A DNA stretch of 64,000 bases from a bacterium. Its GTDB lineage: Bacteria > Patescibacteriota > Minisyncoccia > Moranbacterales > UBA1568. Shown here piece after piece: positions 2,991-56,276 of this stretch; the stretch's first letter is position 1, and every line of letters begins with the position of its first letter. A program made the translations under genes and the position numbers. Location: assembly GCA_021821305.1 (NCBI GenBank), contig JAKACP010000001.1:196934-260933 (forward strand), read 5' to 3'. Below the pieces are notes generated by a model that searched no databases, was not told the origin of the DNA, and worked only from the letters and a program-made list of their open reading frames with translations.

Positions 2991-3180
2991 GAGCCTGCCC
3001 ACTCCCTCACCGCAAAGATGAAAAAGGAAAAATCTCTTCTGCTTGTCGGCTAAAATTCCATCATTTCGGCTGCAAATCTCGAAAAGCTTGTCGAAATATC
3101 TCGATATTCCTCCTCACTTTTCAAAATTTTCGCTCAAAATTATGAAATTTTATACTCGACATGAGAGAGTGGTCAGGCTC
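2991..3180. repeat. Family-1 structured intergenic element, copy A (~190 bp)
   Basis: Ends gagcctgcccactccctca / tgagagagtggtcaggctc are complementary at 17 of 19 positions. Internal boxes tcaccgc, gcttgtcgg, tttcggctgcaaatc and ctcgacatgaga are shared with copies at 13439 and 55111. Confidence 0.6.
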
Positions 3181-7364: not shown

Positions 7365-8774
7365 ATGAAGAAAAAGCCGATCCAGAAGAAGACCAAGAAG
7401 GATATCCGCAGGAAACCGGCCGCCAAGAAACCGGCCGCGAAGAAATCCGCGCCGAAAAAGAAGCCGGTGGTCAGGAAACCTGCTCCGAAGAAGTCCGTGA
7501 AGAAGGCCGTGGCCGGAAAAAAGAAGGTCGCACCGAAGGCGTCGAAAAAGAAAGGCTCCAAGCCCGCGGCCAAGAAACCGGCCGCGAAGAAACCGACCCA
7601 GAAAAAATCACAGCCGAAAAAGACCGCCCGGAAACCGGAATCCGCCGCGAAGAAGGCCAAGGCGGCAATCATGGAGGGAAAGCAGGAGAGCGCGTTCGCC
7701 GAGCTCATCACCCGCGGCAAACAGCGCGGATTCGTGACGGAAGATGAGATCATCCACATCCTCCCGGACGTCGAGACCGATCTCGACGCGCTCGAGCGGC
7801 TCTACGGCGAGCTTGAGGAGGCCGGCGTGCGCGTGGCCGGATCCGACGAGATACTCAAGGTCGAGACCGACCGTATCGCCGATGATTTCGGGAAAAAGGA
7901 AGCCGCCGCCAAGAAGCCGTCGCGTCGTGCGGAGTCGGATGAGGACACCTCGGACCTCGTCCAGATGTACCTTCGCGAGATCGGCCGCGTCGCGCTCCTC
8001 ACCGGCGAGGAGGAAGTGAAGTACGCCAAGCTCATCGAGAAGGGCGATATGGTCGCCAAACAGCGGCTCACCGAGGCCAACCTCCGGCTCGTCGTCTCCA
8101 TCGCCAAGAAGTACGTCGGCCGCTCGCACAACCTCTCCCTCCTCGACCTCATCCAGGAGGGCAATCTCGGACTCTTCCGCGCGGTGGAGAAGTTCGACTA
8201 CCGCAAGGGATACAAGTTCTCGACCTACGCGACGTGGTGGATCCGTCAGGCGATCACCCGCGCGCTCGCCGATCAGTCCCGCACCATCCGTATCCCGGTG
8301 CACATGGTTGAGACCATCAACAAGTATTCCCAGGTGACGCGTCGCCTCGTCCAGGAGCTCGGCCGCGAGCCGCTTCCCGAGGAGATCGCCGCGGAAATGG
8401 GGATGGAGGTCGACAAGGTCCGCCACATCCAGAAGATCTCGCAGGAGACCGTCTCGCTCGAGACCTCCGTCGGCGACTCGGACGACGATTCGGTGCTCGG
8501 CGACTTCATCGAGGACACCGAGACTGTCATGCCGCACCAGTCGGCCGCCCGCAAGCTCCTCAAGGAGCATATCGGGGCTATCCTCGACGAGCTGACCCCG
8601 CGCGAGCAGAAGATCCTCAAGATCCGCTTCGGACTCGAGGACGGTATCACGCATACCCTCGAGGAGGTCGGACAGGAATTCGGCGTGACCCGCGAGCGTA
8701 TCCGCCAGATCGAGGCCAAGGCCCTCGAGAAGATCCGCGAGCACGACCACGTCAAGAAGCTCCGACACTACTAA
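7365..8774 (+). CDS. rpoD: RNA polymerase sigma factor RpoD with an N-terminal lysine-rich (KKPAAKK) extension
   Basis: Regions 1.2 through 4 are present: [20 protein letters not shown] and a 4.2 HTH ([20 protein letters not shown]). The N-terminal ~100 aa is a KKPAAKK-repeat tail. Confidence 0.9.
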
Positions 8775-12509: not shown

Positions 12510-13442
12510 ATGAACGAAGGGAAACATCCGGCGCTCGTCGTCGAACATGTGAAGAAAACCTACGCATCCGGGAAGGAGGCCCTGAAGGAGGTCTCGCTCG
12601 TCATCCCGGAGGGGGATTTTTTCGCGTTTCTCGGCCCCAACGGCGCCGGCAAGACGACCATCATCGGTATCGTCACGGGCATCGTCGACAAGTCGGCCGG
12701 GACCGTCCGGGTGTTCGGGTACGACATCGACCGCGAGCCGGAAAAGGCCAAGGCCTGTATCGGCGTCGTCCCACAGGAAATCAATTTCAATATCTTCGAA
12801 ACCCCGCTCGATATCATCGTGAATCAGGCCGGGTACTATGGGATCTCACGGAAAGAAGCCATACCGCGGGCCGAATCGCTTCTGCGGAGCCTCGGTATCT
12901 TCGACAAGAAGGACCAGGAATCCCGCGCGCTTTCGGGCGGGATGAAACGCCGGCTCATGATCGCCCGCGCGCTCATCCACAAGCCCCGATTGCTCATCCT
13001 CGACGAGCCGACGGCGGGCGTGGATGTGGACCTGCGCCGGAGCATGTGGGATTTCCTCCGATCGCTGACCGAGAAGGAGGGGATCACCATACTCCTCACG
13101 ACGCACTACCTCGAGGAAGCCGAACAGCTCTGCAAGCACGTCGCCATCATCCACCAAGGATCGATCATCGAGTCCGGATCGATGAAGGATATTCTCGGGA
13201 AGATCAACACCGACTCCTTCCTCATCACGCTCCGGTCCCAGGTGACGCCGGAAATCGTCGAAGCGCTCGCCGCGTATCGCGCGAAGAAGATCGACGAGAA
13301 GACGATCGAGATCGAAACGGACGACGGCCGCGGACTCAACGACGCGATCCTCCTCCTCAACGGACGGGGATTCCCCATCGGGGACATCCGGAACAAATCC
13401 GGCCGGCTCGAGGAAGTCTTCGTGAGGCTGACCGGTAAGTAA
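12510..13442 (+). CDS. ABC transporter ATP-binding protein
   Basis: Walker A GPNGAGKTT, signature LSGGMKRR, Walker B LLILDEPT. Confidence 0.85.
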   Translation: MNEGKHPALVVEHVKKTYASGKEALKEVSLVIPEGDFFAFLGPNGAGKTTIIGIVTGIVDKSAGTVRVFGYDIDREPEKAKACIGVVPQEINFNIFETPLDIIVNQAGYYGISRKEAIPRAESLLRSLGIFDKKDQESRALSGGMKRRLMIARALIHKPRLLILDEPTAGVDVDLRRSMWDFLRSLTEKEGITILLTTHYLEEAEQLCKHVAIIHQGSIIESGSMKDILGKINTDSFLITLRSQVTPEIVEALAAYRAKKIDEKTIEIETDDGRGLNDAILLLNGRGFPIGDIRNKSGRLEEVFVRLTGK

Positions 13443-13622
13443 CTGTCCGATATCTCACCGCCCTGAATAAAAGAAAAAACCATGCTTGTCTCATAAAACG
13501 TCCGGATCTCGGCTGAAAACCTCTCAAAGCTCGTCGGATTATCATGATAGTCCTTCTCCCTTTTCAAGGTTTTCATCTCGACATCCGAACATTTTCTCGA
13601 GACATGAGATATCGGACAGTTA
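13439..13622. repeat. Family-1 structured intergenic element, copy B (184 bp) between ABC ATPase and permease genes
   Basis: Perfect 19-bp terminal complementarity: gtaactgtccgatatctca / tgagatatcggacagttac. Conserved boxes tcaccgc, gcttgtctc, tcggctgaaaacc and ctcgagacatgaga. The left stem overlaps the upstream stop codon. Confidence 0.65.
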
Positions 13623-13635
13623 CTAAGGAAAACCT

Positions 13636-14412
13636 ATGAACGCGAAAAAACTCTGGATATCGTTCATGACCATCGTGCGCAAGGACGTGCTCCGTATCTT
13701 CAAGATATGGCCGCAGACGTTCCTGCCGTCCGTCGTGACGTCGGTCCTCTATTTCCTCGTGTTCGGCACCGTGCTCGGCGAGCAGATCGGCGACGTGGAC
13801 GGGTTTTCCTACCTGCAGTTCGTGGTGCCGGGGCTCGTCATGCTCGCGGTCGTGACGAATTCGTTCTCCGACGTCGCGACCGTCTTTTTCGTCTCGAAGT
13901 TCTTTTCGCGCAATATCGACGAGATCCTCGTCTCACCGACGCCACCCTCGGTCATCATCGCCGGGTTCGTCGGGGGAGGTATCGTCCGCGGCGTCCTGGT
14001 GGGAGCGCTCGTGCTCCTCGTCTCGGCGTTCTTCGTCCCGATCTCGTTCGCATACCCTTCGGTGGTACTGCTTTTCCTCGTCCTCTCGAGCCTCGTCTTC
14101 TCGCTCGCCGGACTCGTGAACGGCATCTACGCGAAGAGCTTCGACGGCATCTCCATCGTCCCGACCTTCGTGTTGACGCCGCTCGTGTATCTCGGCGGCG
14201 TGTTCTTCTCGATCGAGGCGCTGCCGGGATTCTGGCGTGATCTCGCGGCGGCCAATCCGATCTTCTATCTCATAAACGGGTTCCGATACGGACTGCTCGG
14301 CCTTTCGGACGTGCCGATCGCGACCTCTATCGCCGTCTTGGTCGGGCTCGCGGCGGCGCTCATCGCAGCCAACTGGTACTTCATCCGCACCGGGCTCGGG
14401 TTGCGGCAATAG
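13636..14412 (+). CDS. ABC-2 family transporter permease
   Basis: Six-TM ABC-2 permease topology immediately after the ATPase. Confidence 0.8.
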   Translation: MNAKKLWISFMTIVRKDVLRIFKIWPQTFLPSVVTSVLYFLVFGTVLGEQIGDVDGFSYLQFVVPGLVMLAVVTNSFSDVATVFFVSKFFSRNIDEILVSPTPPSVIIAGFVGGGIVRGVLVGALVLLVSAFFVPISFAYPSVVLLFLVLSSLVFSLAGLVNGIYAKSFDGISIVPTFVLTPLVYLGGVFFSIEALPGFWRDLAAANPIFYLINGFRYGLLGLSDVPIATSIAVLVGLAAALIAANWYFIRTGLGLRQ

Positions 14413-23854: not shown

Positions 23855-23992
23855 GAAAGCACAGGTCACAGAACACAAAACGCCAAACAAGACACAAAAT
23901 ATGAAATACAAACATGAAACCAAACATCCGCTTGTGCTTTGAGAATTGTGTTTTGTTTGGATTTTTGTGCTTTCGAACTTTGTGTTTTTAGC
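23855..23992. repeat. Family-2 AT-rich A/C-rich palindromic element, copy D, between the nrdD body and the glycyl-radical ORF
   Basis: Arms cacaaaacgccaaacaagacacaaaat / attgtgttttgtttggatttttgtg. Similar to copies at 45301 and 48456. Confidence 0.6.
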
Positions 23993-24274: not shown

Positions 24275-24445
24275 GCCCGCTCAACCCGGATTCCTTTCGT
24301 TCCCGACCGCATCCTCGCCGCCCGGTTTCTTCTTTTCAAAAATTTCCCTCAATCGACGGCATCTCGAGGAAATTTTTGAAGAAGAAACGGGCTTACTCGA
24401 GCAATATGCGGTTCCCGGCAAACGAAAGGAATCCGGGTTGAGCGG
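24275..24445. repeat. ~170-bp near-perfect palindrome (nested inverted repeats) upstream of nrdG
   Basis: acgcccgctcaacccggattcctttcgtt ... aacgaaaggaatccgggttgagcgggct. An inner pair ttcttttcaaaaatttcc / ggaaatttttgaagaagaa is nested inside. Confidence 0.7.
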
Positions 24446-24474
24446 GCTCAATTCCTTCTCCGTGACTCATCCGT

Positions 24475-45300: not shown

Positions 45301-45446
45301 CTTCGAAAACACGGTTTTCAAAACACAAAAAGCCAAACAAAACACGAAGCAAATACTGAAAGCACAAACCTCGCAATCTCGAAGTTTGTGCTTTGTATTT
45401 TGTGATTTGTTTGGACTTTGTGCTCTGTGCTTTGTGTTTTTTTGAT
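45301..45446. repeat. Family-2 AT-rich A/C-rich palindromic element, copy E
   Basis: Arms caaaacacaaaaagccaaacaaaacacgaagc / gtttgtgctttgtattttgtgatttgtttggactttgtgct. It starts at the xseB stop codon. Confidence 0.6.
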
Positions 45447-48455: not shown

Positions 48456-48575
48456 AAAAGAAAAACACAAATTTCAAAAAACAAAAACCAAACAAAGCAC
48501 AAATCCTAAAACACAAGCGGTTTGTAGACTGTGTTTTGTTTGGCTTTTTGTGTACCGTGTTTTGTGCTTTTGAAA
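48456..48575. repeat. Family-2 AT-rich A/C-rich palindromic element, copy F
   Basis: Arms aaacacaaatttcaaaaaacaaaaaccaaacaaagcac / gtgttttgtttggctttttgtgtaccgtgttttgtgc. It fits exactly between the ferredoxin stop and the DUF59 start. Confidence 0.6.
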
Positions 48576-48845
48576 TTACTCGGGGAATACCTGCTTTCCG
48601 TCCTTGTCCTTGATGATGATCGCGGCGACGGGGCAGGATCGGGCGGCATTGAGGATGGTGTCGGTCGAATCCTCGTCGGCCGTCGCGAGGACGGTCGCCT
48701 TGCCCTCGTCGTCGAGCCCGAACGTCTTGGGAGCCATCGCGGTGCAGGGCGCCGCGCCGATGCAGACATTGCGGTCGACTTCCACCGTCCAGCCGTTGGC
48801 GAGAGTGACCGGTCCGCTCGGTTTCGATTCGTCTTTGAGAGCCAT
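48576..48845 (-). CDS. Single-cluster 4Fe-4S ferredoxin
   Basis: CIGAAPC...C pattern; 89 aa. Confidence 0.7.
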   Translation of the reverse strand: MALKDESKPSGPVTLANGWTVEVDRNVCIGAAPCTAMAPKTFGLDDEGKATVLATADEDSTDTILNAARSCPVAAIIIKDKDGKQVFPE

Positions 48846-54594: not shown

Positions 54595-54996
54595 TTATCG
54601 TATCAATGAGTCGAGGGTGATATCCGAGAGGGTTTTTTCTATCTTCTGTTCGAGCACGCGCCAGAGTTCGTTCGTCTGGCAGTGCGAGGGGATGGAGCAT
54701 GGGAGGACGCCTTTCGGAGTCGGCGGCGGGCTGATGCGGGGGAAGGGACTGTCGAGCGCGGAAAGCACGTTCCAGGCGCTTATCTCATCGGCGCCTCGGG
54801 CGAGGGAGTAGCCTCCCTCGACGCCTTTTTTCGCGACGACCACCCCGGATTTCTTCAGTTTCTGAAGGATTTTCTCGAGAAAGTCCGCCGGCAGATGTTC
54901 GGATATCGCCAGATCATGCGCGGATACGGGATTTTTCGACGCGGAGAGGCGTATCGCCGCCCGCATGCCGTAGTAGGCTTTTTTCGATATCTTCAT
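54595..54996 (-). CDS. Rrf2-family transcriptional regulator (IscR/SufR-like)
   Basis: N-terminal wHTH (ISKKAYYGMRAAIRL). It leads the suf operon. Confidence 0.8.
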   Translation of the reverse strand: MKISKKAYYGMRAAIRLSASKNPVSAHDLAISEHLPADFLEKILQKLKKSGVVVAKKGVEGGYSLARGADEISAWNVLSALDSPFPRISPPPTPKGVLPCSIPSHCQTNELWRVLEQKIEKTLSDITLDSLIR

Positions 54997-55110
54997 AGTA
55001 TGAAAGTGGACCTATTTAGTCCGAATTTATGGTACCAAACAGGCACAAACGTGTCAATGAGCGCTTCAAACCCTTGAGTTTTTGCGGAAACTTCTGTACC
55101 TTCCTTCTAA

Positions 55111-55296
55111 GAGTCTGTTCAACATCTCACCGCTTTACATATAAAGGAAACCCTCTCGCTTGTCGTCCAATACTTCAGAATTTCGGCTGCAAATCATTTA
55201 TCACTCGTCGGCTTATCGCGATAGGCCTTCTTGCGATGCATGATGTTCGCTCGAAATTCTGAAGTACTGGCTCGACATGAGATATTGAACAGACTC
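55111..55296. repeat. Family-1 structured intergenic element, copy C (186 bp) between rrf2 and dus
   Basis: Ends gagtctgttcaacatctca / tgagatattgaacagactc are complementary at 18 of 19 positions. Boxes tcaccgc, gcttgtcg, tttcggctgcaaatc, ctcgtcgg and ctcgacatgaga. Confidence 0.65.
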
Positions 55297-55298
55297 TT

Positions 55299-56276
55299 AT
55301 GGATATACACATGGGTTTTTGGAAAAAACTGCGAAAACCGTTCCTAGTGCTCGCACCGCTGGACGATGTCACGGACGCGGCGTTCCGCCGTATCATCGTG
55401 AAATACGGCAGGCCCGATGTCGTCTGGACGGAATTCGTCTCGGCGGACGGGCTCATGCACCCGGAGGGCAGGAAGGCGATACTTCCCAAACTCTGGTTCG
55501 ATGAGAGCGAGCGGCCGATCGTCGCGCAGCTTTTTTCGGCGTTTCCGGAAAAGATGCGCGGGGCGGCGAAGCTGGTGGCCGAGCTCGGGTTCGACGGGAT
55601 CGACATCAATATGGGCTGTCCGGACAAGGCGATCAACAAGCAGGGAGCGGGTGCGGCCTGCATACGTGATTTCGGGTTGGCGCAGGATCTCATCCGGAGC
55701 GCGAAGGCGGGCATCCATGACGCAGGGAAGGATATTCCCGTTTCCGTGAAGACACGCCTCGGGTTCGATACCGATATACTCGAGGAGTGGCTGCCGGCGC
55801 TTCTCGAAGCCGGACCGGCCGTCATCACGCTCCATGCCCGGACGAGGAAGGAGATGTCCGATGTGCCGGCCCACTGGGACCGCGTCGCCCGCGCGGTCGA
55901 GATCGCGGCCGGGTCCGGGACGCTCATCATAGGGAACGGCGATGTCCGCGACCTCGCGCATGCGCGCGTACTCGCCGCCGAAACCGGAGCCGACGGCGTC
56001 ATGCTGGGGCGCGCCATATTCGGAAATCCGTGGCTTTTCGCCGAGGATGGGGAGGATGTTCCCATGACGGAGCGGCTCCGCGTCATGGTCGAACACACGA
56101 GGCTCTACGAGGAACTCTTCACCGGAGTGAAAAGCTTCGATCTCATGAGGAAACACTATCATGCCTACGCGCACGGGTTCCCGGGTGCGAAGGAACTGCG
56201 GATCCGGCTCATGGATTGTCGTGATGCCCGCTCCGTGGAGGAAACGGTGGCCGAGTTTCTTGGCAGGCATGCCTGA
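55299..56276 (+). CDS. dus: tRNA-dihydrouridine synthase
   Basis: Dus family pattern (LAPLDDVTD...DINMGCP...). Confidence 0.8.
   Translation: MDIHMGFWKKLRKPFLVLAPLDDVTDAAFRRIIVKYGRPDVVWTEFVSADGLMHPEGRKAILPKLWFDESERPIVAQLFSAFPEKMRGAAKLVAELGFDGIDINMGCPDKAINKQGAGAACIRDFGLAQDLIRSAKAGIHDAGKDIPVSVKTRLGFDTDILEEWLPALLEAGPAVITLHARTRKEMSDVPAHWDRVARAVEIAAGSGTLIIGNGDVRDLAHARVLAAETGADGVMLGRAIFGNPWLFAEDGEDVPMTERLRVMVEHTRLYEELFTGVKSFDLMRKHYHAYAHGFPGAKELRIRLMDCRDARSVEETVAEFLGRHA

Follow-up and report, generated by a model that had tools for sequence, protein, structure and literature searches.

A probable foldback MITE family of Candidatus Moranbacteria with one copy inserted directly before the dus start codon

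Results

In the 64,000-nucleotide stretch of DNA analysed here (the window), the suf operon begins with the gene for an Rrf2-family regulator (54595-54996, minus strand), which diverges from dus, a gene encoding a tRNA-dihydrouridine synthase (PF01207; 55299-56276, plus strand). The intergenic region between the two genes measures 302 bp, and its dus-proximal two thirds are taken up by a 186-bp repeat element (copy 3; core at 55111-55296) with its 3-nt flanks (55108-55299). A first-pass annotation had this element occupy the whole regulatory region, but 111 bp (54997-55107) remain between rrf2 and the element. The same annotation correctly had it end 2 bp before the dus start, the last base of the element being 55296 and the dus ATG lying at 55299. 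This first ATG is conserved as the dus start in relatives; the second (55311) is not conserved in the relative L113. The left flank reads TAA (55108-55110), a remnant of a target duplication, and the right flank reads TTA (55297-55299), the last A of which is the A of the dus ATG. The G+C content of copy 3 is about 43%, in a surrounding region of about 60%.

The ends of copy 3 are inverted repeats. The left one, GAGTCTGTTCAACATCTCA (19 nt; 55111-55129, plus strand), matches its partner at 55278-55296 (plus strand) with one mismatch (C/A), and with the TAA and TTA flanks included the repeat reaches 22 nt at 95% complementarity, as the annotation had proposed. None of 100 dinucleotide-preserving shuffles of the window gave two matches for the 19-nt terminal repeat pair, and the terminal 19-mer itself has a single occurrence within the window. 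The internal hairpin that had been listed as an additional feature is real (ttcagaatttcg at 55174-55185, paired with cgaaattctgaa(g) at 55252-55264) and forms one segment of a palindrome that runs through the whole element. It is part of a long inner stem (55173-55264; cttcagaatttcg / cgaaattctgaag), which encloses an apical palindrome, TATCGCGATA (55214-55223). An asymmetric region (55130-55166), consisting of CCGC, an A-rich variable stretch and then GCTTGTCG, is unpartnered on the other arm; the blocks flanking the A-rich stretch are conserved across the family described below. As a whole, copy 3 is one long imperfect hairpin, with a predicted folding energy of -83.4 kcal/mol for the plus strand (z = -10.2) and -93.3 kcal/mol for the minus strand (z = -11.5), shuffled sequences giving about -43 to -47 kcal/mol.

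The assignment of copy 3 to a repeat family, also made in the first-pass annotation, is borne out by two further copies in the window. With a profile built from two copies, nhmmer finds three full-length copies in the window, all in one orientation, which are about 63 to 65% identical to one another and each retain their own terminal stem. Copy 1 (2991-3180) has CAA/TAA flanks and lies between convergent genes, with a terminator-like hairpin on either side. Copy 2 (13439-13623), with a terminal inverted repeat matched at 20 of 20 nt, lies between the genes for an ABC ATPase and its permease and is bordered by a perfect TAA duplication (13436-13438 and 13624-13626). A genome search with a pattern of three conserved blocks, one genome per species, returned 107 loci, about 42 of which are true copies by the nhmmer profile that was then applied. 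The pattern scan of JGI metagenomes gave 19 true copies among 94 matches, again as judged by the profile, and the family copies outside the window, in Moranbacteria MAGs and metagenomes, number about 60 in total. Two pattern matches on viral contigs were both false by the family profile.

Copies are 182 to 191 bp long, with a few variants of 205 to 298 bp; members start with G and finish with C, and every complete copy has terminal inverted repeats of about 20 bp. The family is non-coding, indels disrupting every reading frame across the copies. A conserved small ORF, in either orientation, was discarded as a candidate: the ATG in CATGTCGAG is kept, but indels break the frames. Every copy is intergenic, and the orientation relative to the neighboring genes is approximately random (12, 10, 7, and 3 copies in the four classes). 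Many copies overlap an adjacent stop codon by 1 to 4 nt, the stop often coinciding with the TAA flank. Public short-read assemblies of the same genome as the window (L108 and L110) break within the element, at points 62 and 22 nt short of dus, which is what a multicopy repeat would be expected to cause.

The MAGs with true copies are labelled Candidatus Moranbacteria or Moraniibacteriota, "Patescibacteria group," CPR2 (one MAG), or, as TPA entries, "uncultured Bdellovibrionales." The last label is carried by about a dozen element-bearing TPA MAGs (L003, L016, L021, L031, L035, and others). For L021 it is probably wrong, since the UvrC encoded next to the element has named relatives in Moranbacteria only (76 to 81% identity). 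Likewise, the named relatives of the window Dus are found in Moranbacteria only, and the element family appears to be restricted to Candidatus Moranbacteria and close Patescibacteria. At the gathering score, Rfam matched two tRNAs in the window and nothing for the element; at E <= 10, the element family drew microRNA-precursor-like noise, the best hit being mir-875 with 22 bits against a gathering score of 84. A blastn search of plasmid and phage collections returned no match for the element, and a full-text literature search found no paper on MITEs in CPR/Patescibacteria.

The window holds other repeats as well. Two arms 119 nt apart form a perfect 27-nt inverted repeat (24275-24301 / 24421-24447), which may be a second palindromic element; as a candidate member of the present family (24275-24447) it was rejected, its sequence being unrelated. 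An A/C-rich palindromic repeat family of the AAACAAAACAC type is found at 23877-23973, 45320-45441, and 48461-48577, with mutual matches in both orientations. At 2189-2302, the 3' end of a tRNA gene (tRNA at 2120-2204) and the spacer downstream of it are duplicated in tandem as exact 57-bp units, which looks like the att-site remnant of an integrated element. Finally, a coding repeat with a 15-nt period (7394-7638) specifies a lysine/alanine/proline-rich protein segment of the KKPAAKK type.

The flanks of the copies speak for transposition. They are identical (TAA/TAA or TTA/TTA) in 17 copies and mixed (TAA/TTA) in only 2, including copy 3, and we therefore read them as a direct 3-bp duplication rather than as an extension of the inverted repeat. 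At copy 2 the duplication agrees exactly with an empty site. The relative L123, whose permease is 93% identical to that of the window and whose gene neighborhood is the same, is empty at this site (around position 1990) and reads CCAG-TAA-GGAAAACCTATG, where the window reads CCGG-TAA-[element]-TAA-GGAAAACCTATG; the site is likewise empty in L115. The insertion shifts the ATPase stop codon into the element, deletes the last three ATPase codons, and destroys the overlapping ATGA between the ATPase and permease genes. A copy at the same site in L121 is 80% identical to copy 2. In L122 (349-531), copy 2's TAA is occupied by a different family member in the opposite orientation. As this element is only 60 to 63% identical to those of copy 2 and L121, we take it to be an independent insertion; an in-place inversion of copy 2 was considered as well and is rejected because of this low identity. 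Two different members have hit one TAA while a 93%-identical relative is empty, which marks the TAA between the ABC genes (window 13436-13626) as an insertion hot spot and speaks for recent activity.

At copy 3, the empty site deviates from such agreement by 1 nt. L111 and L112 (Dus 97% identical) and L113 and L114 (Dus 87%) carry the same insertion, again with TAA/TTA flanks. In L118 (Dus 82% identical), rrf2 still adjoins dus and the element is absent; the junction there, ...TGTACTTTCCTTC-TA-TGGATATACAG (also written ...CTTGAGTTTTCATGGAAAATTCTGTACTTTCCTTC-TA-TGGATATACAG...), corresponds to the two window flanks joined, with only TA where the family rule predicts TWA. The mixed flanks of copy 3 and the TA of L118 therefore require an extra indel or an atypical integration. 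A 2-bp TA duplication of the IS630/mariner kind would fit copy 3 and L118 but is contradicted by the 17 TWA-flanked copies and by the copy 2 empty site. In other words, copy 3 is present in L111 to L114 and not in L118, and copy 2 is present in L121, not in L123 or L115, and its site has been hit again in L122.

At the dus locus of relatives at 79 to 81% Dus identity, other genes separate rrf2 from dus: small ORFs in L117 and L120, and an orthologue of the window ABC operon in L115 and L116. The ABC ATPase and permease of L115 (648-2362; Dus 81%) and L116 are orthologues of those at window 12511-14412 (81% and 87% protein identity). In the window, this operon is about 41 kb away from rrf2 and dus, so that the lineages differ by a rearrangement.

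Our search for a parent element covered orphan matches to the terminal-repeat profile and inverted-repeat pairs 600 to 3,000 bp apart, none of which had TWA flanks. An autonomous partner, that is, a transposase flanked by family repeats, was not found in the approximately 1.46 Mb of collected loci. We infer that a transposase acts in trans on the family.

Three candidate regulatory signals at the dus locus lie outside the element. A promoter-like site for rrf2-suf (55029-55057, minus strand) reads TTGACA-17-TACCAT with a TG just upstream (extended -10), and its -35/-10 pair was flagged by the promoter scan in the window, L115, and L118. In the rrf2 leader lies a conserved palindrome, GGACCTATTTAGTCC (55009-55023; GGAC-N7-GTCC), which recurs at the rrf2 start and promoter in L115 (approximately 552-567) and L118 (1898-1912), and which may be the operator through which Rrf2 autoregulates the suf operon. 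The third site is a promoter-like block facing dus (55074-55102, plus strand; TTGAGT-17-TACCTT) that is conserved in filled and empty relatives. With a score of 7/12 it falls below the scan threshold and was not flagged; being weak by consensus, it depends for its case on conservation and position only. The block (alleles TTGAGT-17-TAC(C/T)TT) is homologous to a flagged TTGAAT-16-TACAAT in L115, and 6 nt separate its end from the dus ATG in L118.

Alignment of filled and empty alleles gave four conserved blocks, namely, the palindrome, the rrf2 -10, the rrf2 -35, and the plus-strand block, and the rrf2 promoter-like site, the palindrome, and the dus promoter-like block all persist in the element-free L118. 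Since all three sites lie outside the element and are conserved in L118, the element parts a preexisting dus promoter-like block from its ATG. The suggestion of the first-pass annotation that the element may supply or disrupt promoters and operators thus survives in part: an effect on dus expression is plausible, but the region has not been replaced and the rrf2 signals are untouched. The annotation was prepared to give it up if both transcription starts lay outside the element and close relatives lacked the element with no change in expression; what we find is that the promoter-like site of neither gene falls within the element and that a close relative, L118, is free of it at this locus.

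The odd TAA/TTA flanks shared by the filled relatives point to one ancestral insertion and hence to conservation in place. The window and L113 share 91.4% identity in the element, compared with 63.5% at dus third codon positions and 77.6% in the left intergenic region. All substitutions at paired positions keep the pairing of the minus strand (two double compensatory changes and five G.U/Watson-Crick exchanges). The 80% identity of copy 2 to its same-site copy in L121 compares with 76% at third positions, and the differences fall at 12 of 124 paired versus 23 of 62 unpaired positions, pairing being kept on the same strand. For both loci combined, with pair sets from both strands, the count is 10 Watson-Crick/G.U toggles, 6 double changes, and a single A.C toggle.

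The same strand is favored family-wide. The orientation complementary to the window plus strand folds better in 35 of 37 copies, by a mean of 12 kcal/mol (Wilcoxon p = 3e-7), and RNAalifold assigns one alignment -75.4 kcal/mol on this strand and -47.0 kcal/mol on the other. In the family alignment, 95.8% of cells are paired and double compensatory changes occur at 33 of 63 pairs, values that none of 500 shuffles matched. G.U pairs fill 139 cells and A.C combinations 22; G.U is present in at least three sequences at 12 pairs, A.C at none. At copy 3 the favored strand is antisense to dus, and at copy 2 to the ABC operon. Host gene orientation fails to account for the strand bias, the family-wide orientation classes being close to random, and orientation relative to local GC skew showed no bias (16 versus 26). 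We saw no conserved internal promoter in the element and nothing promoter-like upstream on the minus strand at the dus locus. The bias could reflect an antisense RNA borne by the element or a single-stranded step in transposition.

Discussion

The evidence makes it likely that copy 3 belongs to a previously undescribed family of foldback MITEs, that is, non-autonomous DNA transposons, in Candidatus Moranbacteria. The family has the length and the terminal inverted repeats of MITEs, is non-coding, shows a target duplication against an empty site, and is dispersed in copies of variable presence. PIF/Harbinger "Tourist" MITEs duplicate TAA/TTA, and the ends of the IS1031 group carry GAG as terminal bases. 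The present elements resemble both: they are short and non-coding, are bounded by terminal inverted repeats, and make a 3-bp duplication of TAA/TTA (TNA type). Several copies end GAG...CTC, which may point to the IS1031 group; copies 1 and 3 and a few others start with GAG, but most start with GTA or GAA, and most copies end GTAAC or GTATC rather than GAG. The 3-bp TNA-type target duplication (TAA/TTA) is in keeping with the IS1031 group of the IS5 family, in which a 3-nt insertion site is a common feature (PMC2516522). The family differs from IS5/Harbinger elements in that no such transposase with matching ends was present in the collected loci, in its CPR host, and in that the entire element is one conserved hairpin with strand-specific pairing.

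Other palindromic repeats of bacteria offer partial parallels. The enterobacterial ERIC/IRU sequences are imperfect palindromes of >100 bp that are transcribed in operons and for which orientation-dependent RNA effects are reported; the present elements share the palindromic form and size, but sequence, host, and target duplication are unrelated. Correia elements (CREE/NEMIS) of Neisseria make a TA duplication and have 26-bp repeats and an IHF site. The likeness here lies in being intergenic MITEs of 100 to 200 bp that would be co-transcribed with adjacent genes, lie by start codons, and fold through inverted repeats. In contrast, the present family duplicates TWA, is dissimilar in sequence, and is hosted by Moranbacteria, having been recovered only from Patescibacteria-type MAGs, most of which bear a Moranbacteria label, and metagenome contigs, none of them labelled Neisseria, so we would regard the likeness as functional only. 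CREE can create promoters at its ends and can be cut or protected by RNase III (PMC2649163), and by analogy both properties may serve as a working model for dus.

An alternative that we hold to be possible, though unlikely, is that the element acts first and foremost as a structured RNA read from the minus strand, toward rrf2-suf (a regulatory RNA module or a mobile small-RNA gene), with mobility being secondary. The conserved hairpin would then be the functional product, for instance, an antisense RNA or a processing signal acting on dus or suf. The better fold of the minus strand in nearly all copies, the compensatory changes beyond the level of any shuffle, the excess of G.U over A.C both across the family and in the same-site changes at two loci, and the conservation of copy 3 above its flanks are all in line with this proposal. 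Yet pairing extends to the last bases of the element, and a full-hairpin RNA must therefore begin outside it, where the minus strand has no promoter-like site upstream; a conserved internal promoter is lacking too. Nor does the random orientation relative to host genes fit easily, or the antisense position of the favored strand to the operon at copy 2. Transposition is shown by the target duplications, the empty sites, and the repeated use of one TAA, no Rfam family matches at the gathering score, and the strand bias could instead stem from a single-stranded DNA step of transposition.

Such a step would be inherent in a REP/BIME-type or IS200/IS605-derived palindromic element mobilized as single-stranded DNA by a HUH (Y1) transposase, which we judge very improbable as the identity of the family. 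It would explain why the hairpin of one strand is conserved independently of host gene orientation and GC skew, and REP/BIME sequences (RAYT) are likewise intergenic palindromes in which the single-stranded hairpin of one strand matters. However, HUH single-strand transposition (IS200/IS605 family) is not known to make direct target duplications, and the 3-bp duplications confirmed here by empty sites speak against it. The ends are symmetric 20-bp inverted repeats rather than asymmetric subterminal hairpins, and the family has no conserved GTAG-type tetranucleotide. REPs are 20 to 40 nt long, carry a conserved 5' tetranucleotide, and lack a target duplication, whereas the present element has 186 bp, inverted-repeat ends, and a 3-bp duplication, and falls outside the REP/BIME type. 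That the hairpin is a chance palindrome, or an ordinary immobile terminator or operator of the rrf2/dus region, is hardly credible despite its intergenic location, given that shuffles do not reproduce the repeat, that the fold z-scores are near -10 and -11, that about 60 homologous copies lie in unrelated gene contexts, and that the site is empty in L118.

For dus, the preferred reading of the element as a transposed MITE has specific consequences. Copy 3 was inserted at a T-A junction immediately before the dus ATG, leaving the rrf2-suf promoter-like site and the palindrome intact, and has since been kept under constraint. Because the promoter-like block ends 6 nt before the ATG in the uninterrupted relative L118, dus looks leaderless there. 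Transcription from the corresponding block in the window genome would begin at the element's first bases, so that the dus mRNA would include the entire element as a 5' hairpin leader of approximately 190 nt, its AUG placed at the base of the stem. As judged from the position of the block in L118 and of the element between block and ATG in the window, the insertion probably gave dus such a leader. Translation would then need melting of the hairpin or its processing, e.g., by RNase III as for the Neisseria Correia elements; alternatively, it might make use of a weak outward promoter in the right repeat. All of these statements on the dus mRNA are read from sequence. The element does not fill or replace the regulatory region, but it probably alters dus expression.

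The outward promoter could also be the main one. The right terminal repeat contains TGAGATATT (55278-55286), which by inspection resembles an extended -10 element pointing to dus. If the element itself supplied the dus promoter, transcription would start about 6 nt before the ATG and a near-leaderless mRNA would be restored. L111 and L113 have exactly the window's motif, the strong conservation of copy 3 is compatible with an acquired function, and Correia elements set a precedent in creating promoters at their ends (PMC2649163). However, TGAGATATT is not accompanied by a -35 element and was not flagged by the promoter scan. Most family members read TGAGATTTG at this position and so miss the final T of the -10 hexamer, which means that an outward -10 is not a family property. 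Moreover, the upstream promoter-like block is still conserved in filled genomes, suggesting its continued use. We therefore find a promoter supplied by the element doubtful, and prefer the hairpin leader transcribed from the upstream block.

Possibly, the MITE family is more than a passenger. A passive "junk" MITE predicts neither the 91% conservation in place nor the strand-specific pairing that we observe. We propose, as a speculation to which we give rather low credence, that the family is a mobile structured-RNA module in which the hairpin of one strand is selected wherever the element lands. If so, the hairpin might work either as an antisense RNA or as a single-strand intermediate. The copy between rrf2 and dus would then be a domesticated element that regulates dus, the suf operon, or both, in a CPR bacterium for which very few regulators are known.

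In summary, our study describes a new MITE family in an under-studied phylum, CPR/Patescibacteria being a group whose mobile elements and regulatory RNAs are almost undescribed. With its pairs of filled and empty alleles and the repeated hits on one TAA, the family documents transposition in the tiny, compact Moranbacteria genomes in a clean and datable form, and it also fragments public assemblies. Insertion can rewire expression, as suggested by copy 3, which would split a promoter from an apparently leaderless start codon, and by copy 2, where the ATGA translational coupling of an ABC transporter is broken and the last three ATPase codons are lost. Should the strand-specific conservation reflect an RNA function, the family would represent a rare candidate regulatory RNA for an uncultured phylum.
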